From a virus: DNA of 64,000 nucleotides. Shown in pieces: positions 3,734 to 64,000 of the stretch. Position 1 is the first letter of the stretch; each line of letters opens with the position of its first letter. Both the position numbers and the translations under genes were made by a program. The stretch is taken from positions 37,941 to 101,940 of IMG/VR virus record IMGVR_UViG_3300046753_000522. One strand, given 5' to 3'. The notes under the pieces are model-generated. The model searched no databases. It was not told the DNA's origin and was given only the letters and a program-made list of their open reading frames with translations.

Positions 3734-4495
3734 TTAGGGATTATCGTCCTCCTGATCGAATTTCTTTGCTTGACAGGAGAGGTGATATACAACAGTGTTC
3801 TCTGGCATCGGTTGCTTCGTTCTATCAAGGATTGCCCAGTAGTTCCAGCGCAAATCATTTTCGAAGATTCCGACCTTTAGGTCTTTATACTTGGGTTCTT
3901 TCTCAGTTAACCACCAAAGGGTAAATTGATCCCACATCGAAAGGTTTTCACGAGGATACAATTCGTCGTCAGGTTCGCCCTGTTCGTTAGTTGGCCACCA
4001 CTGATTCTTATTTTGTTTAATAAAGTACTCGTGCCAGTCTTTCATAAACTCCATCACCAACGGATTGCTGCTATCATACAGGCAGACAGCACCACAAAGC
4101 GTGAAGGTTCCTCCAGGGAACTCAGTATCCTTGAACACATACCACCGATCCCTCGGCAATCCCGTGAACATCATATCGTGGTCGCCAAGTTCGTCCCACA
4201 CCTTTGCGATATCTTCGTGGATAACCTCAGAGTCAGCATCGATATAGAATGTGAGGTCGTATGGAGTGTTCGCCATTCCCCACAACTTTTCTCGCACGCC
4301 GTTACCGCAAAGCAGAAGATCATCTGCTAGATCTGCTCTCTGGTCTAGAAATCTTTCTTCAGTTACGAGACAAACCTTTGCTTCAGGGTGATAGTCTTTA
4401 ATTGACTCAACAACATTACAGGCAAAGGAGTAGTAGCGATAGTGCCTTGATCCGACTACAACATAACCCCTAGTCTTTGATTGTGAACTCGACAC
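3734..4495 (-). CDS. Glycosyltransferase, GT-A fold (GT8-like)
   Basis: TPYDLTFYIDAD DxD motif; WDQ motif; RWNY. Confidence 0.75.
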   Translation of the reverse strand: MSSSQSKTRGYVVVGSRHYRYYSFACNVVESIKDYHPEAKVCLVTEERFLDQRADLADDLLLCGNGVREKLWGMANTPYDLTFYIDADSEVIHEDIAKVWDELGDHDMMFTGLPRDRWYVFKDTEFPGGTFTLCGAVCLYDSSNPLVMEFMKDWHEYFIKQNKNQWWPTNEQGEPDDELYPRENLSMWDQFTLWWLTEKEPKYKDLKVGIFENDLRWNYWAILDRTKQPMPENTVVYHLSCQAKKFDQEDDNP

Positions 4496-4931
4496 CGATT
4501 TCCTCCATCATAATCAATTGTGCATAACATTGCATCTCGAGCAAACTTTTAGATCTTCGAAGTTTACTCTTCAATTTCTTATTCTCGGTGTTTTTGACTT
4601 CTTCGATTTCGAGGATCCTTATCTTGGCATCAAATAGTTCTTCAAGTTCCCTTGCTTTTTGATTTGCCTTGCGTTCTTGTTCCTCGACTTCTTGCTCTTT
4701 TGCCTTACGAATTCGGCGCTCTTCAGTACTCGTGTCGATCGCCTCTTCACCGACCTGTTCCATCAACTCTTCCCAATCGGGGTTGACGTTCATTTCGGTG
4801 TCGAATTTACGGACCGTGAGAACCTGAGAAATTTCCCGACCTTCAGAGTCTGTGATGACGAGAATCGCTTCTGCGATCTCTTTCTCTTCATTATGCCAGA
4901 AGGCATTGTCTAACCACTTTCTTTTGCTCAT
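4470..4931 (-). CDS. Hypothetical protein (charged, coiled-coil; possible fibre assembly factor)
   Basis: 153 aa, closely packed between the fibre gene and the GT gene. Confidence 0.6.
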   Translation of the reverse strand: MSKRKWLDNAFWHNEEKEIAEAILVITDSEGREISQVLTVRKFDTEMNVNPDWEELMEQVGEEAIDTSTEERRIRKAKEQEVEEQERKANQKARELEELFDAKIRILEIEEVKNTENKKLKSKLRRSKSLLEMQCYAQLIMMEEIGVEFTIKD

Positions 4932-4973
4932 TTCATTCTCCTATCATAAAGCAATGATGTAGTGTTATGTATA

Positions 4974-7373
4974 TCAGGTATCGGATACCCTACAGTACAG
5001 AGTGAAGGTGTCGATTGTCTGAATTTGTGATGTGATCGTTTGACCAGTATACTGGTTTGAATACTGTGAAGTGTAGTTTCCAGCATAGACGCCAGTGTAA
5101 GTTCCACTGTATTGCGCAGTGTATGTAGTTGGAACTTGACCCGTAAACTGATTGTCACGAGGACCAGCGTAGGTTCCGATATAGTTTCTATCGCCCTGAT
5201 ACTGGTCCCCGCGCGAGGCAAAATTTCTGTCCCCTTGGTACTGCTTACCGTATGTCCTTTTACCTTGGAACTGAGTAGATCTGACGAATTGTTGTGTCGG
5301 AGAAGTAAAATCTCCAGGTTTTATTCTTGTGCCAGAGAAACTTCGGACACCAGCATATTGAATAGGCACAAGAGTATAGAATAATTGGTTTCTCACGTAG
5401 TTATTACTGAAACTTCTTTGCCCAGCAAATTGCTGCGGAGTGTTTCTTTGTCGACTTCCCTGGAAGGGGTATGGGAACGGACCGCCAAAGTTATTAGCAT
5501 AATTGTATAATCTGTAACCTTGGTATGGTCTTGGATAGTAATACTCAACAGGGTAATTGGAGATGAAATTACGTTGACCTGTAAAGAAACTTGGAACGAA
5601 TCTCACCCCAGCAAAGGCACGTGATCCTGCATAATATCCTGGAGAAGAATATAACACATTCCGTTGACCGTTATAGTATACGACTGAATAAGTCGAAAAA
5701 GATTCCCTGACACTAACAGGTTGATATGTTTCTCGACCCTGAATCGGAACGCCACCACTGGAGAAATTGAGGTTGTCATCCCCTTCGTCAACCACGGGGA
5801 TGATCGGGTTGAAGAAGTAGTAAAACGGAGTTGGGGTTGGAGTTGGAGTTGGTCTTGGACTTGGAGTTGGAGAACTATTGTAGCGGACTCCAGTATAAGA
5901 CTGTGTAACTCCTCTTCCAAAGGGTAATTGTCCAGGACGATATAGTCCTTGGAACTGCTGAGGTCCGCCACCGAAATTGCTACCTACTGTGCGTTGAGCA
6001 GGCGTTGCCCTGTTTCCAGCAAAGGGGTATGGACCCAGTGTTCTATAGTTTGTGGCATAGGAAGATGTGACCCCGAACCCAGCGAATGGTTGAAGTCCTC
6101 CAGGTTGAACCCTGTATCCGCTAAATGCCCTTGTACGAAATCCGGCATAGTCGCCACCGTATGAGATCTGGCGCACCCCAGCAAATGTTCTGTCTTTCTG
6201 GCGCGCACCAGAATAATATGAGGTTACGAAATTCGTAAGTGGTGTAAGACCCCCACGCTGAATTGGTCTTGTATAATCATCACTAAAAGATCTTTGCCCC
6301 GAAAACTGTCTGGTTCCGGCGAACTGCCTTGTTCCAGCATAGTCACCACTATAGTCTCTCTGTCCAGCATAGGTGCCTACAAAGTTCCGAGAACCTTGAT
6401 AACTGCCAGTGTAGTTTCTGTCACCTTGGAAATTAAATGTTCGGAATCCAGAGTATTGAGTGTCGACGTCAGCGAAAGAGACGCCTGTATACTGACCAGT
6501 GTACTGCCCAGTGTATTGCCTCGTGTATTGAGGACTTGTAAACTGTACCGTGGCATACTGCAAATCTTGTACGATATGTTGTGTGTCAGTTGCTGTACCT
6601 CTTGCAACCCACGTACCGCTTGCTGTAGGCGCTCCCTGCGCCGAGGAGCGTAGTTCGTAATCGCCCACCCCAGTTGTTGATTGACCGATCAAAAGGATCT
6701 CTCGTGCTATCTCCTTCGCCTCCTCCTTCGTTATCTCTCTTAGGTCAGGACTGACGCCATCATTGAGAGCAACGGGGAAGTGCACGGGAATATTCGGTTC
6801 TTCTACAATAGAATTTTGTGTCAGTCTCCAGATATGATAGATGATATCGCCGGAAGTGCGAGTATCGGTGAAAGCAGAATCAATCCACTTTGTCCAACCA
6901 GAACCTGGAGATGACTGAGAGAGTTTAAAGGCACCAGCAAATGTGTTTACATGAACCTGCCCTGCGATTCTCTGCGCTAACTCGAGTATTCCCGCATCTT
7001 GCATTTCATATATTTCGCCGTCACTATCTGTTACGACAGGAATGGGGTAGGAACGGATATATCGAGTAGTGCTGGCAGAGTCTGCCATTTGATATAGGTT
7101 GGTGCTGATTGTCCCTTCACTGATAGAAGTTCCAGGGTGAGTCCCGACAGGTTCGTTATAGAAGGTATCGACATATGTGCCGATGAGATCCGCATTGTCA
7201 GAGTCAAGGGTTAGACTCTTGCTGTATCGGTCAGTCGTATTAGGATAAGTTGTGATTATCTTTTCCGATGCCCAATACGCCATCCATTCTTCTAATGCGG
7301 CATCAGACTGCTGTACACTTCCGTCTCCAGCGCCCGTCTTTAGAGTCAGCGGTATTGATTCATATGATGACAT
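4974..7373 (-). CDS. Putative fibre protein with (F/Y)xGxR repeats and a central PT-rich stretch (paralog B)
   Basis: 799 aa; shares TFYxxPVGTHP, LRSSAQGAPT..GTWV.RG.A.DT and C-terminal TFTLYxRVS with paralog A. Confidence 0.65.
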   Translation of the reverse strand: MSSYESIPLTLKTGAGDGSVQQSDAALEEWMAYWASEKIITTYPNTTDRYSKSLTLDSDNADLIGTYVDTFYNEPVGTHPGTSISEGTISTNLYQMADSASTTRYIRSYPIPVVTDSDGEIYEMQDAGILELAQRIAGQVHVNTFAGAFKLSQSSPGSGWTKWIDSAFTDTRTSGDIIYHIWRLTQNSIVEEPNIPVHFPVALNDGVSPDLREITKEEAKEIAREILLIGQSTTGVGDYELRSSAQGAPTASGTWVARGTATDTQHIVQDLQYATVQFTSPQYTRQYTGQYTGQYTGVSFADVDTQYSGFRTFNFQGDRNYTGSYQGSRNFVGTYAGQRDYSGDYAGTRQFAGTRQFSGQRSFSDDYTRPIQRGGLTPLTNFVTSYYSGARQKDRTFAGVRQISYGGDYAGFRTRAFSGYRVQPGGLQPFAGFGVTSSYATNYRTLGPYPFAGNRATPAQRTVGSNFGGGPQQFQGLYRPGQLPFGRGVTQSYTGVRYNSSPTPSPRPTPTPTPTPFYYFFNPIIPVVDEGDDNLNFSSGGVPIQGRETYQPVSVRESFSTYSVVYYNGQRNVLYSSPGYYAGSRAFAGVRFVPSFFTGQRNFISNYPVEYYYPRPYQGYRLYNYANNFGGPFPYPFQGSRQRNTPQQFAGQRSFSNNYVRNQLFYTLVPIQYAGVRSFSGTRIKPGDFTSPTQQFVRSTQFQGKRTYGKQYQGDRNFASRGDQYQGDRNYIGTYAGPRDNQFTGQVPTTYTAQYSGTYTGVYAGNYTSQYSNQYTGQTITSQIQTIDTFTLYCRVSDT

Positions 7374-47727: not shown

Positions 47728-48354
47728 CTATCCTTCTGTACACCCTTCGTATTCGGTGTATTCGTCGATGAACCTATATGGTGTGGTTTGGGAAATCTGA
47801 AAATCTTGCGTCGCGGTGTTCCAGGTAAGTTCGACGTTCCAAGATCTTTGTCCTACCTGAATTCCCTCCAGCACCAACCTATCCTGCCAAAGATGTATTC
47901 TTCGCACCTCATATAGTTTAATATCATTGGGGTCTTTAATGAAATTAGTGTTTGCCAACTTGCTGACGCAAAACTCTGCTTCTTTGAAATTATACCTCCC
48001 GTCAAACGTGTATGCGTAAACGGCGACACGGTGGTATCCTTCGTCATATTCTTTGAAGTTGACTGTTTGTGAGAATCCAGAATATAGAGCGCCATCGACG
48101 TCCGGAAACGCATTGGCGACATCTAATCTCGACCCGCCTACAGGAACTTCAGATGAAAACTGCTCGTCGATATAGATCTCAACAACTTCGACTGATTTGG
48201 TGGGGTGAAGCGTCCATCCTCTGACCGTCCCGATATTTCCGAGCGTCACTCCGTTTACAGGAGTCTCGAGGAAAATCCTAATATTTTCGTCTCTTGTCTG
48301 CGCCTGTGCAGTAGAGAATACCGCAATCATTGCTAGTAGTAGGAATGTTCTCAT
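47728..48354 (-). CDS. Exported protein with an Ig-like domain
   Basis: Signal peptide MRTFLLLAMIAVFSTAQA; LE.P..G, RGW, VEIYID, GG.R.DV...FP, SGFS. Confidence 0.6.
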   Translation of the reverse strand: MRTFLLLAMIAVFSTAQAQTRDENIRIFLETPVNGVTLGNIGTVRGWTLHPTKSVEVVEIYIDEQFSSEVPVGGSRLDVANAFPDVDGALYSGFSQTVNFKEYDEGYHRVAVYAYTFDGRYNFKEAEFCVSKLANTNFIKDPNDIKLYEVRRIHLWQDRLVLEGIQVGQRSWNVELTWNTATQDFQISQTTPYRFIDEYTEYEGCTEG

Positions 48355-54915: not shown

Positions 54916-55326
54916 TTACTCCTGGGATTTTAATTCGGTAGCAGTATTTATACTCTCTTTAGACTTGGTTATCTGATCTTCGTAATAAACGATTATCGCC
55001 TGCTGTTGCTTTATATATCGTTTGATATCGGCAAGGTTCAGAGAGAGGTTTTCGTAGTGTGGGACAGATATAGCAAAGAACACAAGGTCGCCGTTATCGT
55101 TCTCAAAGTTCTTTTCAAACTCATCAATGTTGTCTGTAGTAACAGTGTACCACTTCACGTCCGACATATTGATCGGACGAGGGGGTCTTTGCTGAGGTAT
55201 GTTAGGTGCTTTGTAGACTACCTGAGTTACAACAACCTCTTCAGGTTTACTGAGGAGACTGCACCCCGTCGTCAGTAGGAGCACCACTGACAGACTCAAT
55301 AGCGTCAAATGCTTTTTTAGTTCCAT
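54916..55326 (-). CDS. o-spanin (Rz1-like lipoprotein)
   Basis: Lipobox LTTGC, Pro-rich segment; overlaps the upstream i-spanin gene. Confidence 0.72.
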   Translation of the reverse strand: MELKKHLTLLSLSVVLLLTTGCSLLSKPEEVVVTQVVYKAPNIPQQRPPRPINMSDVKWYTVTTDNIDEFEKNFENDNGDLVFFAISVPHYENLSLNLADIKRYIKQQQAIIVYYEDQITKSKESINTATELKSQE

Positions 55327-55642
55327 TGTTTACTCTCGTCTCGATTAATCCAGGTTTCTTGAGCGCCAACCTCGTGAGGTCATGCTTACCAAACACTTCA
55401 ATGAGTCGGTTACGACTCTCTTCGGATTCTTCTAATCTCTCCTGAAGTTCCTCGTTCAACTCAGCATTGATTTCCGCTTGGTTCTCCATGCTATCGATAG
55501 TCGCCAAGTTCTGCGCGTTCGCGAGTTTCAACTCTGCGTTGTTCGACTGTAGTTGTGCAATACGTGCTTGGGTGTCGGTGTAATAGAACCAACCGCCACC
55601 TGCGATCGAACCTGCTAACAGTAGGACGAGTAGTATAGGCAT
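55247..55642 (-). CDS. i-spanin (Rz-like)
   Basis: N-terminal TM helix, coiled coil, KPGLIE.R.N. Confidence 0.72.
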   Translation of the reverse strand: MPILLVLLLAGSIAGGGWFYYTDTQARIAQLQSNNAELKLANAQNLATIDSMENQAEINAELNEELQERLEESEESRNRLIEVFGKHDLTRLALKKPGLIETRVNNGTKKAFDAIESVSGAPTDDGVQSPQ

Positions 55643-57936: not shown

Positions 57937-58191
57937 TCAGCAGTTCCATCTCCGACGTGCTGCTTTGCCTCTCTCGCCAGTCCAACTGCGCGAACGAGCA
58001 CAAAAGGATTTGCGCCTGCCTGCTGCCTTGCCATTTGGATCAAGTTTGGAAGGTGGAGTTGTCACAGCGGTCTTGACACCTGCTGCCTTTGCACCTTTGC
58101 GAGTTAGACCAGCACCGTCTTCCACAGGTCTCTTATGACCCGACTTGACCCCGCCCTCAGATACCTGTAGAAATTCGATAAACCGCTTCAT
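57937..58191 (-). CDS. Basic protein with RRKSFCAR...WNC motif (DUF6321-like)
   Basis: MKRFIEFL N-terminus with GGGAG RBS; conserved C-terminal motif. Confidence 0.6.
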   Translation of the reverse strand: MKRFIEFLQVSEGGVKSGHKRPVEDGAGLTRKGAKAAGVKTAVTTPPSKLDPNGKAAGRRKSFCARSRSWTGERGKAARRRWNC

Positions 58192-58218
58192 TGCACTCCC
58201 CATATTTCTGTCGGGCAT

Positions 58219-58252
58219 AAAAAAAGACCTATCAAGTTGCCCTAATAGGTCT
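58219..58252 (-). terminator. Rho-independent terminator with GCAA tetraloop
   Basis: AGACCTATTAGG-GCAA-CTTGATAGGTCT-TTTTTT. Confidence 0.8.
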
Positions 58253-58260
58253 TATTTATA
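58253..58260 (-). promoter_or_regulatory. T4-type late promoter TATAAATA abutting the terminator stem
   Basis: Exact consensus. Confidence 0.75.
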
Positions 58261-58271
58261 CATGTAAAAAC

Positions 58272-58598
58272 TTACTTCTTACCAGACCACGCCTGCGCTC
58301 CGAAGAATGCTGCCACGATACCAGCAACAGAAACAAAGTAGACTGACGCCATTGACCCGAGGATCTCTGCTGCTTGGTGCAGATTCATTATCTCGGTCGC
58401 CATAACGGTCGCTGGATAGAGCAACATACCAGACAGGGCGAACCATGTCATCTTACGTTGCGCGTCTCGCATTGCATCTTGGTCTTCAAGTTCCTTTCTC
58501 TTGAACTCCATATACATCTTATGCTCTTCCTCGCTGACCTTTCGGTCACCGTTGGTATCTGCGGGATGGAATCCTGCCTTTTCGATTTCTTCTGCCAT
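58272..58598 (-). CDS. Two-TM membrane protein with an EF-hand-like loop (holin candidate)
   Basis: DTNGDRKVSEEE followed by two hydrophobic helices. Confidence 0.55.
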   Translation of the reverse strand: MAEEIEKAGFHPADTNGDRKVSEEEHKMYMEFKRKELEDQDAMRDAQRKMTWFALSGMLLYPATVMATEIMNLHQAAEILGSMASVYFVSVAGIVAAFFGAQAWSGKK

Positions 58599-58606
58599 GT
58601 TACCCC

Positions 58607-58873
58607 CTATTTGGTTTTAATAATGTCATAACCAACAGGATCAACTGTTTTGATATGCACAGCATGACCGTCAACAGTCTTCAACTTAAACTCAGTTTGC
58701 GATTTAACCTTTACAGTTCTACACGTGTAGTGCTTTGGGTTGAAGTGTACTGTCTCCGAACCATCCTCGTTCTGCACCTTACTGGCAGGAAAATAAATGG
58801 TGACCTCAAACTCATCGATGAACCAAGCGAGGATCCAGTCCCAGATTCTTTTCCAAATACTTTTCTTCTTCAT
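58607..58873 (-). CDS. Hypothetical protein
   Basis: 88 aa; amphipathic Trp-rich N-terminus. Confidence 0.55.
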   Translation of the reverse strand: MKKKSIWKRIWDWILAWFIDEFEVTIYFPASKVQNEDGSETVHFNPKHYTCRTVKVKSQTEFKLKTVDGHAVHIKTVDPVGYDIIKTK

Positions 58874-59325
58874 GATAGTGGATTGTCCAGTACTTTCTGA
58901 ATTTTATCTTCGAGGTTATCCTCGATCTCTTTGATCTTACGATCTGTTTCGCTGACAAGGGCATCTCTCTTCGTTTCAAATCTTTCGTCTGCCTTATCAA
59001 TCATTGTTCGGACTTTGTCCTCTGACTCGCGCACCATATCTTCGATACGGTCTGCCTGTGCCTCAACCGAGAGTATATCATCCCTCAGATCGGACTTAAT
59101 ATCTCTCGTGTAATCGATCGCCTCGTCGAGTTTCGTTTCGATGACATCATTCCTTGCTTCAATCTCTCCGACGTCGATGTTCTGGATAATCTCTTTCATA
59201 TCCATGTAATCTTTGTAAAACTCGAATGCACCCCAAGTCGCCCCACCAAGTGTAGTGAGCGCAGTGAGCAAGATCATCATCTTGCCTCCTTTGAATGTCA
59301 TACCGCCAAATTCTACTTCTGCCAT
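58870..59325 (-). CDS. Membrane-anchored coiled-coil protein
   Basis: TM segment ILLTALTTLGGATWGAF followed by a long coiled coil ending NPL. Confidence 0.65.
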   Translation of the reverse strand: MAEVEFGGMTFKGGKMMILLTALTTLGGATWGAFEFYKDYMDMKEIIQNIDVGEIEARNDVIETKLDEAIDYTRDIKSDLRDDILSVEAQADRIEDMVRESEDKVRTMIDKADERFETKRDALVSETDRKIKEIEDNLEDKIQKVLDNPLS

Positions 59326-59534
59326 TACTTGTCCATCTCTCTGATTGCCAATTCCCTAATATTTTCCTCTGCCTCTGCCAAGTCATCCTGTAGTATCGCG
59401 ACCTGTGTCTGTAGCAGGTGTAACTCTTCCAGTGTCTGGAAGTAGGTTGCCACAAATGTGAACAGTAAAGACAAGAAGGCGACCAAACTCTTAACCGACA
59501 TTCTAATTTCAGTTTCTTCGTTCAAAAAACTCAT
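59325..59534 (-). CDS. Small membrane protein with coiled coil
   Basis: One TM helix; start trimmed to 59534. Confidence 0.5.
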   Translation of the reverse strand: MSFLNEETEIRMSVKSLVAFLSLLFTFVATYFQTLEELHLLQTQVAILQDDLAEAEENIRELAIREMDK

Positions 59535-59570
59535 ATCATTTAAGGGGGAGCAGAACTCCCCCATTCCCCC

Positions 59571-59729
59571 TTATTCTGCTTTCCAAAGAGTCCACGCACC
59601 GTAGGCACAGAGCGCCATTGCTGCGAGTTTACCGAGCGGACCGAGCAGCAGCACGGATGCTCCAACCCCGAGACATACTGCCCCATCGAGTGAAGTCCTT
59701 TCTGCCATTCTTGCTTTTAACCAGTCCAT
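59571..59729 (-). CDS. 52-aa two-TM membrane protein (holin-like)
   Basis: Not in the ORF track. MDWLKARMAERTSLDGAV...YGAWTLWKAE; AGGAG RBS. Confidence 0.65.
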   Translation of the reverse strand: MDWLKARMAERTSLDGAVCLGVGASVLLLGPLGKLAAMALCAYGAWTLWKAE

Positions 59730-59730
59730 T

Positions 59731-60327
59731 TTATTCTCCTATTTTACAGTTACGTTTGCGGTGACCATTCCACGCCACAAATCCACCAATACGCAATGCC
59801 CAATATGCCAAATAGTTTAAGAAATGGAAACCATTTTGCTCTATGTTGATGTCTCTAAAGATTATGTCCATATCTTTTTGAGTTTTCCATCCACAGTTTT
59901 CTTTCCAGTCTCCTTTGTTCTTCGTGTACAGGGTTTCATATTTGTATCCGTAGTCGTGGACAAGTCCCCCCACTAATAGGACTCCAACAGGAGACAACCA
60001 TGATGCCAAGAACTTCGGCACTGATGCTCCGTCGAATACAAATCCTTTCGGTATGACGTAGTTTACGCCACCGATTGTGTAATGCCAATCTTTTACAATC
60101 TCCCATGTTCGACCGCCGAGTAACCACATTTTGACTGCACCCCAGAATCCCTTACCTGCGGTTTCTATCCTAACAGGTTTCATATGGGGCATTTCTTTGT
60201 ATGTGAACCCGAGCAACTCTTTGTCGTTATCGACTCCAAACAAGTTGACCACAAACCCAACAAGGATTAGGATCGCGGCAACGGTGAACATCCAAAATTG
60301 CATTGCCAAGTTAAACAGTGTTTCCAT
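59731..60327 (-). CDS. DUF1353 family protein with N-terminal TM helix
   Basis: IP.GF.FDGASVP, VHD..Y, D..F. Confidence 0.78.
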   Translation of the reverse strand: METLFNLAMQFWMFTVAAILILVGFVVNLFGVDNDKELLGFTYKEMPHMKPVRIETAGKGFWGAVKMWLLGGRTWEIVKDWHYTIGGVNYVIPKGFVFDGASVPKFLASWLSPVGVLLVGGLVHDYGYKYETLYTKNKGDWKENCGWKTQKDMDIIFRDINIEQNGFHFLNYLAYWALRIGGFVAWNGHRKRNCKIGE

Positions 60328-60768
60328 TTATTCGTACTCCTCGAACTGCATTTTTCTGAGGTTGGCGATCTCTGCCTCCAACTTCTCTACTTCTAATCTC
60401 TTCTTTCTCAACTCCAGTTGATACAGGGCATCACAATTCAGTCTCTTCTTCGGAGCACCAATAGGAATAATGATACGACCGTAAACGCCAACGTCCCGTA
60501 TAAACTGGTCGTTGTTGTACCTCTGTGCCATATAAGGATCTTCCTGCGATAAACGGTAGAGTGGATCCTCTTGGTTCAGTATACCAACAACGCCAAACTC
60601 GACATTAGTTGACGAACCGATTGCCATGGAGCATTCTGTATCTCCTGCTCGTATCCTATCATTCTGAAAACTCTGTTGTGCCTGAGGTATCGACATGTTC
60701 AATGACGAAGACTGCCCCCATACAAGAGAGGGTACAAAACAAAGAATGATCAATAGTAGTTTTTTCAT
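60328..60768 (-). CDS. Exported protein with a Cys pair and C-terminal coiled coil
   Basis: Signal peptide; DRIRAG..EC..AIG, GVYGRIIIP, RLNC..LY.LEL. Confidence 0.65.
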   Translation of the reverse strand: MKKLLLIILCFVPSLVWGQSSSLNMSIPQAQQSFQNDRIRAGDTECSMAIGSSTNVEFGVVGILNQEDPLYRLSQEDPYMAQRYNNDQFIRDVGVYGRIIIPIGAPKKRLNCDALYQLELRKKRLEVEKLEAEIANLRKMQFEEYE

Positions 60769-61148
60769 TTCGCCTTTGAGCAGATACGGGAAGCAACTGC
60801 TGCCCTACTCCGCTGTTCCTTCAACAATTTCGATACCGAGCAGATATAAACCGCCCTTTCAATGTCCTTCTTCCTAACGTAAACCTCAACCGTTTTCTTC
60901 TTCAAGTGTGGTACTTTCATCACTTTTTCTGATGTAACGAACGGTACGGGTTCCATATCAGCATCGAGTACTTGTACACCATACCACTCGACGTCTTTCC
61001 TGGAGTTAAACAACTCCATCTTTACGGACACAACTCCATCAATGTACGAACTTTCCCACTTCGGATAAGTCGGCGTCCACTGGTGGGCAATTGCTGGTCC
61101 CGAAAATATTAACAACGAAACCAGCAGTTTCTCGCATAACGAAAGCAT
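60765..61148 (-). CDS. Exported beta-sandwich protein (pilus-chaperone-like)
   Basis: Signal peptide ending AIA-H; LFN.R, YICS..., SRICS. Confidence 0.55.
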   Translation of the reverse strand: MLSLCEKLLVSLLIFSGPAIAHQWTPTYPKWESSYIDGVVSVKMELFNSRKDVEWYGVQVLDADMEPVPFVTSEKVMKVPHLKKKTVEVYVRKKDIERAVYICSVSKLLKEQRSRAAVASRICSKAK

Positions 61149-61153
61149 AGAAA

Positions 61154-61651
61154 TTACTTCGCTATGCAATCTGCTTGAACAATTGACCGATAAGTGCCTG
61201 ACGGGAATGCCCTATCAAACCCATATGCAACGTCTGAAGAAACGGAGAACCAAGTGCTACCTGCAACAGTCAAGTCATACTCCGTCTTGTTGTCATAGGT
61301 CACCTTGCCTGTCTCGTATCCAGACATTGTGGTTTCCGATACTTCTTCTACTGTTGTTGAACCTGTCCACGCAGTGTTGTCAATCAGTGTTGGACTCTCA
61401 CTGAACGACATTGGGTGAGCAATCACTGCCTTATAGTAGTTTGCCTGTAGCACATCAAACCGAACGATGGGTTCTACCCCACCATCAGCAGCATCAGTAC
61501 TGAGAGTATCTGGTGTTGAGTTGCCATAGACACCTTCTGTGTCAGCAATGATCTGACACTTTGATTGGACTTGACCGACAATTTGAACTTCTTCCGCATA
61601 AGATGCGCAGGTGAAGATGCCAGCGATGAATCCGATGATTAACTTCTTCAT
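61154..61651 (-). CDS. Exported beta-rich protein (fimbrial-subunit-like)
   Basis: Signal peptide; I.G.V.SKC near the N-terminus; G.Y...V.A.C at the C-terminus. Confidence 0.55.
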   Translation of the reverse strand: MKKLIIGFIAGIFTCASYAEEVQIVGQVQSKCQIIADTEGVYGNSTPDTLSTDAADGGVEPIVRFDVLQANYYKAVIAHPMSFSESPTLIDNTAWTGSTTVEEVSETTMSGYETGKVTYDNKTEYDLTVAGSTWFSVSSDVAYGFDRAFPSGTYRSIVQADCIAK

Positions 61652-61652
61652 A

Positions 61653-62525
61653 TTACTTTCCCTCGTATTGTTGATCAACCATTTGGTTGTGTAGTGCATC
61701 GTTCGCATAATTCAATCGCCGTAACTGTACATTGTCGGGCAATGTCGCATCCTTTAACTCAATCCTCTCCTCATACCCAGGATCAGGAATAACTCTTTCG
61801 TATGATGCTGGCACAAAGTTGAGTGCCAGCATCTGCGCGTGTAACATCTCTGCTGGTCCTTGTAGTTCGTTCAACGAAAACGTGCCCAGCATTTTCTCAA
61901 GGTCAGTCAGTACCAACTTCTTCTTCTCTTTGTCCTTTATCCTCTCGAAGTCGCGACGCTCTTGATCATCGTCACGGAATACCTGCTCACGGTCCATCTG
62001 GTCTTGGAACGATTCCCCCGCCAGATCTAAATTTGTGTCGTCAGTCTCTGGTATCACTGGTGAGTATCCTGGACAAGTTGGATTGTTCTGCGGGTTAATA
62101 CACTTGTCATCATAGCGATAGGTGTATAACACAGAGGGGTCGACAACCTGCCCTTCTCCCTCTACGACGATAGAACCGTCTCCCCAGTACTCAACGGGAA
62201 TGTAATCAACTGGTACGATCTTATTGATTGTATTCCCTGGAAGTCCAGTCCAGTCGTCGACCTCACGGAAGATATAACCGCCATCGATCGGATTCTCGTT
62301 CTGCACGGAAACGACCATGGGGTCGCTGGGGTCTTTGATGGTTGTGTACTGATACACAACTCCGTTGACCGCCAGTCCCGTGTATTGGGGAATTACATTC
62401 TGCATTACCCACTGCTGCCCACTTTGGGCAGCATTACCACTGGATCCGTAGATTACTTCAGAGGAGGAGTAAGAGCAGTAACCCAGCAAGAGCACCGCCA
62501 CCAGCAGCAGTTTTTTCTCCAGCAT
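61653..62525 (-). CDS. Exported protein
   Basis: Signal peptide; C.NPQ.NP.CPGY; helical C-terminus. Confidence 0.62.
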   Translation of the reverse strand: MLEKKLLLVAVLLLGYCSYSSSEVIYGSSGNAAQSGQQWVMQNVIPQYTGLAVNGVVYQYTTIKDPSDPMVVSVQNENPIDGGYIFREVDDWTGLPGNTINKIVPVDYIPVEYWGDGSIVVEGEGQVVDPSVLYTYRYDDKCINPQNNPTCPGYSPVIPETDDTNLDLAGESFQDQMDREQVFRDDDQERRDFERIKDKEKKKLVLTDLEKMLGTFSLNELQGPAEMLHAQMLALNFVPASYERVIPDPGYEERIELKDATLPDNVQLRRLNYANDALHNQMVDQQYEGK

Positions 62526-63006
62526 CTAAACCCTCCTCTTCGGGTTGTTCTAATTCTTCTCTCTGCCATGCTGCCTTTGCAGCGTCACCAATCATACCGT
62601 CTTTGGGGCAGGGAGTTCCTGCGTTCATCATTGCGTCGAATACTCTCTTGTCTTGGCACATCATCGACACTGCTGCCACTTTCATGCCCATATCATAGAG
62701 AGTTTTAGAATTCTTGAGACGCTCACAGTTTTCGTCTGTGAACTGAGTCCCCGTCGAGATACCAAGTATCTGAGTTTGCACTGCACCCGCAACTCCAAAC
62801 GTACAAAGGTCGGAGTTCGACGTGTTGATAGTGGGGGATATAGCGGAAGCAGGCGGTGACTTCAATTCAGTCTCCGTCTTTCCGTTTGTTGTAATCGTAC
62901 TGGTCGTTACAGACTCTGAACGAATTAGGTTGGGGTCTACTGGATCTTCTTGTCCAATTGCAATTGTACTAAAGAAGATTGCAGCAAGTGCAAGCATCCT
63001 TTTCAT
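62458..63006 (-). CDS. Exported Cys-rich protein with hydrophobic C-terminal tail
   Basis: Signal peptide; PP.SAISP, four Cys, GTPCP; ends GGGALAGLLLLLLL. Confidence 0.65.
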   Translation of the reverse strand: MKRMLALAAIFFSTIAIGQEDPVDPNLIRSESVTTSTITTNGKTETELKSPPASAISPTINTSNSDLCTFGVAGAVQTQILGISTGTQFTDENCERLKNSKTLYDMGMKVAAVSMMCQDKRVFDAMMNAGTPCPKDGMIGDAAKAAWQREELEQPEEEGLDAGEKTAAGGGALAGLLLLLLL

Positions 63007-63080
63007 CTTATACCTCAGTTTTATTATCTGTATAAAATTACTCAGGGGTGTTGCATGTACTTCAAATTCGAGTTATTATT

Positions 63081-63308
63081 TTATGCCAAGTCTTTGTCGT
63101 GGTTCAAACCACCTTTCTTCTTCTTAACGATAAAGGCATTGACCCGAGCATGTCCCCACTGCTGGGGAGTGGTTCCAGGACGGTGCCCCGTCTTCCATGC
63201 TGCGACGCCACGGTTGTAAACCTTTTTCAGAGTACCGACGGAGATACCCGATTTATCTGCTTTCGCAGCAAGTCCCTTTGACTCTTCAATGTAGTCAATA
63301 AATTTCAT
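63081..63308 (-). CDS. DUF5824-like basic protein
   Basis: VYNRG.AAW.TGHRPG.TPQQWG.ARV.AF; MKFIDYIEE N-terminus. Confidence 0.65.
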   Translation of the reverse strand: MKFIDYIEESKGLAAKADKSGISVGTLKKVYNRGVAAWKTGHRPGTTPQQWGHARVNAFIVKKKKGGLNHDKDLA

Positions 63309-64000
63309 TTCTTATCTCCATACATCTGTTTAAACTGCTTCGTGTACTTTGATGGTTTAGTCTTTGCGTCGGCATCTCCAGGAGCAGGTTTGTATGCTTT
63401 CGGGTTTGAATCCGACATCTTCGCCTGCTTCTTAAATTGTCTATCTCGGCGGGTCTTCATCGCCTTGGATAAACCTTTATGGTATTTAGCGGGTTGTGTG
63501 CCCTCGCGGTCCTTGATTTCAGAATCTTGTGCTACTTTTTTCTCGACCACTTCATCGTCTTTCGCCTTTCGCGAGGTCTTTCGCTTTTTGCGACCAACAT
63601 CAACCTCTGGTTCGGGAACGTCCACATGTCCAGCGTCCATACCGCCACCGCAGGACTCGTCGAGTTTCTCTACAGAATCTAACCACTTGCGGAGGGACTT
63701 ACCCTCAGCAATCTCAACAACAACGTAGTTGCTACCGAGAACAGTTACCGTTCCGATCTCTTCGGACTCTTTGACGACCACTTGATCGCCAACAGAGAAC
63801 AACTCGCCCTTCACAAACTTCTCTCGGGTTTCGCTGACCGATTCTAACTCAACGTGTCTCTTGAATACGGTTTCCTCTTTGATGCCCATGCCCTTACGGA
63901 CATCGGTAAACAGTTTCTTGGAATCTTTGGTGTTCATATTTCGACCGAGTCCCTGAGAGAAACTGGCGAAGTCGTTGTCTGATGCGAAAGAACGTAGTTT
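63305..64000 (-). CDS. Cytidylyltransferase-like protein, C-terminal part (5' end outside the window)
   Basis: Frame open to the window edge: KLRSFASDNDFASFSQG...KLF..VRKGM, RE.F..GE.F.VGD. Confidence 0.6.
   Translation of the reverse strand, partial: KLRSFASDNDFASFSQGLGRNMNTKDSKKLFTDVRKGMGIKEETVFKRHVELESVSETREKFVKGELFSVGDQVVVKESEEIGTVTVLGSNYVVVEIAEGKSLRKWLDSVEKLDESCGGGMDAGHVDVPEPEVDVGRKKRKTSRKAKDDEVVEKKVAQDSEIKDREGTQPAKYHKGLSKAMKTRRDRQFKKQAKMSDSNPKAYKPAPGDADAKTKPSKYTKQFKQMYGDKK

Follow-up and report, generated by a model that had tools for sequence, protein, structure and literature searches.

A widespread gene module for exported envelope proteins in an uncultured marine T4-like phage, with a possible role at lysis

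Among the described systems that come close to the locus reported here, the closest precedent in the same phage family is the CsgGF curli pore of the pelagimyophages Melnitz and HTVC008M, for which a role in lysis timing was proposed by its authors (PMC9004378). A second described protein with a counterpart at the locus is TtaP, encoded in the typhoid toxin islet, the founding and sole characterised member of the DUF1353 family and a phospholipase A2 with a His/Asp dyad (PMC11525133). Searches of the literature on DUF1353 and on pelagiphage lysis genes found no description of the gene module that is the subject of this work. The module is a cassette on the minus strand of a 64,000-nt stretch of DNA, hereafter the window, which forms the final 64 kb of a 102-kb IMG/VR record (IMGVR_UViG_3300046753_000522; completeness estimate 60%). 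The source is an uncultured marine T4-like phage: the window gives PHROG matches to T4-type baseplate wedge and hub proteins, an amidase, class I ribonucleotide reductase (RNR) subunits and a carbamoyltransferase, its long open reading frames (ORFs) are all on the minus strand, and Melnitz and HTVC008M, its closest cultured relatives by DNA, are myophages of the Kyanoviridae that infect OM43 and SAR11. The cassette is real, an undescribed and very widespread module by which phages encode exported envelope proteins, and its genes, export signals, co-conservation, composite build-up and neighbourhood are directly observed. The reading favoured here, to which an even chance is given, is that the cassette makes up an envelope complex of the Gram-negative host that acts at or around lysis.

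The first five genes of the cassette (A to w146 in Table 1) all encode N-termini in which a basic n-region and a hydrophobic core precede a cleavage site of small residues, a pattern kept across all relatives though the residues vary; export was judged from such sequence rules together with conservation. By a crude heuristic, signal-peptide-like N-termini occur in 8 of the 74 minus-strand ORFs of the window, and five of these eight are the consecutive cassette genes, the remaining three being w52, the o-spanin lipoprotein and an ORF at 47728-48354. This last ORF, also on the minus strand and outside the cassette, encodes a 208-aa protein with a Sec-type signal peptide and no family match. The mature chains of the five proteins carry invariant Cys residues, four in A (w182) and two each in B (w290), w165, w127 and w146. 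The start of w165 is placed at the ATG at 61651, which is backed by the relatives, and not at the in-frame ATG at 61708. The initial annotation had described five adjacent genes (63006-60328) with signal peptides and paired Cys, one member with a C-terminal hydrophobic anchor, and a transmembrane (TM) DUF1353 protein followed by TM coiled-coil proteins. Its description agrees with the ORFs, the N-termini and the invariant Cys, with the tail of w182 (GG..LLLLLLL), and with the Pfam DUF1353 match behind an N-terminal TM segment, downstream of which w52, w79 and w151 follow. Its view that these are not virion parts holds as well, the set being co-conserved, exported and membrane-anchored and plausibly an envelope assembly of the infected cell.

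Table 1. Features of the cassette and its surroundings, in coordinates of the window.
Feature	Position	Strand	Description
A (w182)	62458-63006	-	182 aa; signal peptide, Ser/Thr/Pro-rich linker, 4-Cys core, C-terminal hydrophobic tail
B (w290)	61653-62525	-	290 aa; signal peptide, N-terminal beta-rich domain, Cys loop C..C-P-G-Y, acidic linker, C-terminal domain
w165	61154-61651	-	165 aa; secreted immunoglobulin (Ig)-like beta-sandwich; "fimbrial subunit" of the initial annotation
w127	60765-61148	-	127 aa; small secreted beta-sandwich; "chaperone" of the initial annotation
w146	60328-60768	-	146 aa; secreted; two hydrophobic strand-like segments, Cys pair, C-terminal charged coiled coil
DUF1353 protein	59731-60327	-	N-terminal TM anchor; phospholipase-A2-like; optional insert
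w52	59571-59729	-	Small membrane protein; Melnitz homologue at 9.5e-20
w79	59325-59564	-	Small; TM and coiled coil
C (w151)	58870-59325	-	One TM segment, periplasmic acidic coiled coil; third core gene
w88	58607-58873	-	Small; closest relatives only
w108	58272-58598	-	EF-hand-like loop (DTNGDRKVSEEE), then two TM segments; final gene of the unit
Terminator-like hairpin	58224-58253	-	13-bp stem and T run; sole one on the coding strand within 58000-63400
Spanin pair, overlapping	54916-55642	-	i-spanin 55247-55642, o-spanin lipoprotein 54916-55326; about 3 kb downstream of the cassette

The co-conservation of these genes was followed through the viral contigs of IMG/VR. A scan with w146 returned 14 loci, each with all five genes in the same order, at 44-88% identity, as far as the contigs reach. 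A diverse w182 profile gave at least 600 loci, of which 80 were kept, 45 of them with at least 4.5 kb of downstream DNA; w165, w127 and w146 follow in order in all 45. C was likewise found no more than 5.5 kb downstream of A in 45 of the 45 loci with enough DNA, mostly directly after w146. With either probe the five genes are kept together at every locus long enough to show them (14/14 with w146, 45/45 with w182), an outcome that upholds the gene set as it was initially annotated.

Not all carriers of A have the whole set. The cultured pelagiphages HTVC115P, HTVC023P, HTVC202P and Mosig, together with some two dozen more phage contigs binned into metagenome-assembled genomes (MAGs), carry A without the three genes w165, w127 and w146. 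One large secreted protein (430-850 aa) follows A in these wherever the contig is readable, and a w151-type protein (C) comes next in most of those with enough downstream DNA. The N-terminal parts of the large proteins diverge, and a C-terminal domain of about 100 aa is common to all of them and to w290. Since A, the C-terminal domain of B and C occur without the insert, A-B-C is the old core, between whose last two members w165, w127 and w146 were inserted; wherever these three are met, their position is between B and C. The cassette is thus, as judged from gene content and order, a composite on an old and very widespread three-gene core, a feature that the initial annotation overlooked. Carriers of A-B-C comprise myo-, podo- and sipho-type phages of Gram-negative hosts, with cultured SAR11 phages among them, and the hosts of the cultured carriers are all Gram-negative.

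Further downstream the gene content is more variable. DUF1353 and w52 form an insertion in some lineages only, DUF1353 being present in L006, L007, L018 and L019 (related loci are numbered with the prefix L) and in Melnitz and HTVC008M, and absent from L008-L017, where a 153-aa C-terminally anchored protein replaces the DUF1353/w52 insertion; w79 is added in the two closest relatives. In Melnitz and HTVC008M, DUF1353 and w52 are accompanied by a weak relative of w151, and none of the five secreted genes was found in either. Among Kyanoviridae-like phages, an islet beside the genes for primase and RNR is occupied by spanins, by DUF1353, by a C-like gene or by A-B. This variability bears on the idea that the locus is a loose collection of unrelated secreted morons at a shared insertion hot spot, with no joint function. 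Consistent with it, DUF1353, w52, w79 and w88 vary in presence between relatives, and the region between the cytidylyltransferase-like and RNR genes varies among pelagimyophages. It is nonetheless a very improbable account, as the order of A-B-C, and in this clade of all six genes, is preserved in phages of different types and at identities as low as 35-45%, and the genes overlap or abut, with an A/B overlap of 3n+2 nt conserved in most lineages.

This overlap deserves a closer description. The last 68 nt of A are the first 68 nt of B, in different frames (62458-62525, minus strand), and an overlap of 62-95 nt, again 3n+2, recurs in most lineages. As A and B overlap in two frames, A has its hydrophobic tail encoded by the same DNA as B's signal peptide. 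An A-B fusion by a +1 frameshift at the overlap is conceivable.

The initial annotation also mentioned similar gene sets in other marine phages and in Vibrio. The link to Vibrio was not borne out: a scan of 185,579 species genomes matched only MAG and single-cell contigs, which look like co-binned phage DNA. One such bin, "Rhodobacteraceae bacterium Water_Bin34" (3.6 Mb; G003, with loci L023, L024 and L025), contains five CsgG genes and no fewer than three distinct versions of the cassette, spread over separate contigs, from which it appears to hold several co-binned T4-like phage genomes.

The core proteins themselves belong to large unnamed families. The family of A comprises at least 8000 clusters at 90% identity, all of them unnamed, and w182 matches phrog_20531 at 3.5e-17. 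Homologues of A were found in HTVC115P, HTVC023P and HTVC202P at 1e-37 to 1e-40, in Mosig, HTVC033P, Baldr and the Roseobacter phage CRP-207, weakly in CRP-810 (7e-6), and, as more distant relatives, in Achromobacter and Ralstonia phages. The conserved 4-Cys core of w182 spans residues ~66-147. Its AlphaFold2 (AF2) model has a mean predicted local distance difference test score (pLDDT) of 61, with only the helical core at 90-150 confident, and a fold search with this model, which is poor outside 90-150, matched no known fold (highest Z 3.6, lowest Foldseek E 0.6). A GlyGly-CTERM/rhombosortase signal was considered for the tail of w182 and set aside, no NCBIfam match being present at E up to 1 and the tail ending in Leu with no basic cluster. 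The C-terminal domain of w290 (~100 aa, ending in ..LH..MV..QY..) matches the large proteins of L038 and L029 by blastp at 4e-5. No Pfam, NCBIfam or PDB sequence match was obtained for w290, nor any Pfam match for nine large B-type proteins. C has a conserved cytoplasmic N-terminus (MAE.EFGG.K..GGK) and a conserved end (..LDNPL), and its homologue in HTVC115P is gp49, at 1.4e-24. In the Roseobacter phage CRP-810 (L065), the product of 4372-5127, labelled "OmpA family protein", carries an A domain and that of 5758-6180, labelled "lysozyme", is a homologue of C (w151); both labels are without Pfam support, and the ideas of an OmpA fusion of the A domain and of a lysozyme neighbour in this phage were dropped on these grounds.

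The gene neighbourhood of the cassette bears on its function. In four relatives (L089, L092, L097 and L103) the order A-B-w165-w127-w146-C-w108-holin-GH19 endolysin is contiguous, and L091 is arranged likewise with a gap after w108; the holin in loci of this type is 64-69% identical to a phrog_3427 holin. Because w108 directly precedes holin and endolysin in several relatives, its product may be a second holin or an antiholin. Lysis genes adjoin the module in other ways as well: a GH19 endolysin lies just after C in L038 (phrog_181, 8e-77), a small TM protein and a lysozyme (phrog_7) just after C in L039, the TM coiled-coil gene of HTVC023P is followed by an M15 peptidase, and in L073, L079 and L126 gene A is directly preceded by an endolysin. 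A position next to holin and endolysin was thus found in relatives, and in the window the cassette lies only near the spanin pair. The two spanins of the window match phrog_739 at 4.4e-15 and phrog_812 at 2.3e-13, with a lipobox LTTGC detected heuristically, and Rz/Rz1-type spanins lie within ~2-6.6 kb in the window and in L012, L072, L075, L077, L094 and L148.

Where the cassette abuts holin or endolysin, the lipobox heuristic found no credible o-spanin candidate, and the complete genomes of HTVC202P, HTVC023P and HTVC115P (L149, L150-L153) gave no lipobox o- or u-spanin on any coding strand. No lipobox was detected in the cassette proteins either, the coding strand of the window giving only the product of 54916-55326. 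C has the architecture of an i-spanin, with an N-terminal TM segment and a periplasmic coiled coil, and no match to a spanin PHROG.

The DUF1353 protein adds a possible enzymatic component. Its Pfam match has an E-value of 9.8e-11 (41.6 bits against a cut-off of 22.5) over residues 75-177, and H124, D125, D154 and D159 are invariant in five sequences. The phage protein shares with TtaP an above cut-off DUF1353 match and keeps an invariant His-Asp pair with a downstream Asp, putative counterparts of H70/D71/D85 of TtaP; it differs by its additional N-terminal TM anchor. A PDB profile search with the protein gave no phospholipase A2 match. The PHROG label "tail assembly chaperone" (phrog_1158) is doubtful for this protein, given that TtaP is a phospholipase A2.

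Taken together, the contiguity with lysis genes, the proximity of spanins, the lack of lipobox candidates, the i-spanin-like build of C and the DUF1353 link to phospholipase A2 point to an envelope complex working at lysis. In such a complex, C would be anchored in the inner membrane through its N-terminal TM segment, extending into the periplasm as a coiled coil, and A, once exported, would be held by its C-terminal hydrophobic tail. B would be exported too, with its conserved C-terminal domain serving for docking and its lineage-variable N-terminal domain turned toward the cell wall or the outer membrane. Three small secreted proteins, the predicted Ig-like sandwiches w165 and w127 and the strand-plus-coiled-coil protein w146, would have joined between B and C, and the phage of the window would further contribute small TM proteins and, anchored in the membrane, a phospholipase-A2-like DUF1353 protein. 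Following the action of holin and endolysin, the complex would weaken or open the outer envelope layers or set the timing of this step, with the cassette working beside or in place of classical spanins. A more specific version, which is offered tentatively and falls well short of an even chance, is that of a new, lipoprotein-free, multi-component machine for the last step of lysis, a spanin counterpart in very abundant ocean phages that include those of SAR11. The initial annotation had left the choice between superinfection exclusion, adhesion and lysis control for its envelope structure; lysis control fits the gene context best, and the pilus-like part is not retained.

Several observations weigh against a lysis function and have to be set beside this evidence. 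The window phage and its T4-like relatives already carry a canonical spanin pair, so that the cassette cannot simply be replacing spanins. The distance between the core and the annotated endolysins is large in HTVC202P and HTVC115P, and lysis genes were recognised within ~7 kb in 15 of the 45 loci with enough DNA, a count obtained with few probe families. Late-operon ends of small phages hold tail-fibre and lysis genes, so that some proximity is expected. The lipobox heuristic, which recovers the o-spanins of the window and of Melnitz, missed an atypical candidate in HTVC008M. No T4-type late promoter stands directly upstream of A, the motif TATAAATA being absent from the coding strand at 58260-64000, and RNA libraries gave just a few short contigs of low depth, possibly DNA and with some parts uncovered, by which transcription is not shown. 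Finally, the mutual binding of the proteins, their topology and their role in lysis are points that we only infer.

As for the coding context, TATAAATA, the T4 late-promoter motif, occurs 10 times in the window against 1.3 expected, on the coding strand every time, and a late promoter of this type was found upstream of A in 24 of 90 related loci. Since the cassette genes adjoin or overlap one another and the sole coding-strand hairpin comes right after w108, the unit reaches 58272, past the limit of 58870 that the initial annotation had set. The segment 63006-58272 can accordingly be described as one predicted transcription unit, closed by one terminator. Beyond it, TATAAATA stands at 58253-58260 for the next unit, with the hairpin immediately after it, and the next gene starts at 58218. 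Some 40 nt (58224-58260, minus strand) hold both terminator and promoter.

The same proteins could serve another purpose in the infected cell. T5 Llp and T4 Sp and Imm are phage proteins that act in superinfection exclusion or receptor masking, and by analogy A, the C-terminus of B and C would form a scaffold presenting the variable N-terminus of B and, in this clade, the Ig-like proteins to receptors on the host surface or to parts of incoming phages in the periplasm, by which later infection and the sticking of progeny to debris would be blocked. The marked variability of the B N-terminus (B ranges from 290 to 850 aa) against the conserved B C-terminus, A and C is typical of an arms race or of host-specific binding, the module often comes after tail-fibre genes (HTVC115P, L039, L050 and CRP-810), and all the proteins are predicted to be periplasmic or membrane-bound. 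Exclusion is nevertheless held to be unlikely. The cassette proteins have no likeness to the tail-fibre or receptor-binding proteins of the phage itself, nor to the Sp, Imm, Llp and Cor families. Exclusion genes, where known, are as a rule single, early and of poor conservation, whereas the cassette is multi-genic, occurs across morphotypes and is repeatedly contiguous with holin and endolysin. Exclusion genes are also common in isolate bacterial genomes and prophages, where no homologue of the cassette was found among the 185,579 species genomes.

Two of the three inserted proteins were the origin of the pilus-like interpretation in the initial annotation, which took w165 for a fimbrial subunit and w127 for a small beta-sandwich chaperone. 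The AF2 model of w165, built on a 14-sequence alignment, has a pLDDT of 88.4 and a predicted template modelling score (pTM) of 0.75 and gives an all-beta Ig-like sandwich, in which Cys32 and Cys162 would link the first and last strands and a poorly ordered stretch would precede the first strand. The Atlas model of w127 has a pTM of 0.75, and the nearest Pfam-bearing Atlas cluster is PapD_N at 0.83, below the lead threshold of 0.9. These features, and the fact that the genes of w165 and w127 are always adjacent, would accord with an usher-less chaperone-subunit system, in which w127, as a half-size PapD-like protein, would chaperone a pilin-like w165 fibre by strand exchange, with w146 and C accounting for outer-membrane passage. 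The best Foldseek matches of w165 are indeed to chaperone-usher pilins (CfaB, FimD-tip subunits and the PapG pilin domain), at E-values of 2e-3 to 1e-2 and template modelling scores of ~0.4 (best 0.41), which are weak. An independent aligner, VIA, places Ig domains of the SdrD/FnBPA type (MSCRAMM, a staphylococcal and hence Gram-positive adhesin) first instead, at a Z of 7.5 that is background level, being the usual best score for models without a real match.

Profile comparisons lead away from the chaperone-subunit system as well, which is judged improbable. By hhalign, w165 reaches 0.8% probability against FimA and w127 0.07% against FimC. No PapD_N signal was found for w127 by Pfam, by genome scan of the 102-kb record and a 152-kb relative (G001; completeness 84%) or by hhalign, and w127 is a single domain, with a mature chain of ~105 aa, and not two. 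The usher family PF00577 (~800 aa) was absent from the 102-kb record and the 152-kb relative, both incomplete, with a positive E. coli control, and no usher-sized ORF was seen in or beside the cassette, so that the initial statement that no usher is visible stands. The older A-B-C core, moreover, does without w165 and w127 in many phages. The idea of a fimbrial subunit with its chaperone is unsupported, as it relies on a common fold type and the defining parts of a chaperone-usher system are absent; the cassette is accordingly not regarded as a pilus system. A link to curli was rejected too: CsgG (PF03783) and CsgF (PF10614) were absent from the 102-kb record and CsgG from the 152-kb relative, with positive controls, and the five proteins gave no Pfam match to CsgG or CsgF at E up to 1. 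Likeness of the cassette proteins to tail fibres or to any other ORF of the window was also looked for, and none was found.

Other properties of the inserted proteins were recorded. The w165 family is small, with just 102 representative clusters among 1.84 billion proteins, and two distant relatives in singleton clusters (P0200 and P0205) could not be placed at any locus in viral or metagenome contigs. The w127 family comprises 1510 clusters, and the 120 listed ones are all of 117-135 aa, with exactly two Cys each and no Pfam domain. All 120 of these listed relatives have His directly behind the position predicted for signal-peptidase cleavage (A|H-x-[WMF]-x-P-[TA]-Y-P). Such an invariant mature N-terminal His recalls the histidine-brace copper sites of CopC, YcnI and lytic polysaccharide monooxygenases, and by this likeness a copper site may be an alternative to the chaperone reading of w127. 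For w146, phrog_37374 was matched at 2.8e-8, and no Atlas, Pfam or PDB lead was obtained. When all members were searched against Pfam, NCBIfam and PHROGs, only DUF1353 and unnamed PHROGs were returned, and PDB profile searches with the five proteins and the DUF1353 protein gave nothing below an E of 0.4.

All six proteins are unnamed and have neither a Pfam family nor a matched structure, and the family of A occurs in cultured phages of SAR11 and Roseobacter, virus-host pairs that rank with the most abundant in the sea. For the breach of the outer membrane at lysis, no spanin candidate could be recognised in three cultured pelagiphages. If the cassette does carry out a lysis step or its control, it would be a new class of lysis component and would help to explain a large share of marine bacterial mortality. 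If it instead forms a periplasmic fibre or a receptor block, it would still be an undescribed envelope structure made by a phage.

When the cassette is set against known systems, family membership is found only for DUF1353 among the families tested. The chaperone-usher pathway (FimC-FimA, CfaA-CfaB, Caf1M-Caf1 and CsuC-CsuA/B) would be the closest fold analogy for two of the members, sharing with them adjacent, Sec-exported small beta-sandwiches with disulfides, a weak likeness of w165 to the pilin fold and a weak language-model lead from w127 to PapD_N. It differs in its usher, its two-domain chaperone (PapD_N and PapD_C, ~220 aa) and its profile signal, all missing from the cassette, where the w165/w127 pair is embedded in a larger conserved phage module. 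The T4 proteins holin T, antiholin RI, Spackle and Imm are, like the cassette proteins, small and exported or of single TM topology, some with disulfides, and belong to the periplasm of T4-type infection; C would share with holin T a topology of one TM segment and a large periplasmic domain. No family match to these T4 proteins exists, and sizes and gene order differ. The CsgGF pore is likewise formed by exported envelope proteins in the same family of marine T4-like phages, whereas the cassette proteins are unrelated to it and lie at another locus, Melnitz and HTVC008M being without the five genes. Compared with two-component spanins (lambda Rz/Rz1 and T4 PseT.3/PseT.2), the cassette is without spanin-family homology and without a lipoprotein partner, has three to six or more proteins against two, and occurs in a window phage that also holds a true Rz/Rz1-like pair. 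The spanin complex would nonetheless be its closest working analogy, as both consist of envelope proteins of phages of Gram-negative hosts that span, or in the cassette are predicted to span, the periplasm, C has the build of an i-spanin, and the cassettes of several relatives abut holin or endolysin with no lipoprotein spanin candidate beside them.

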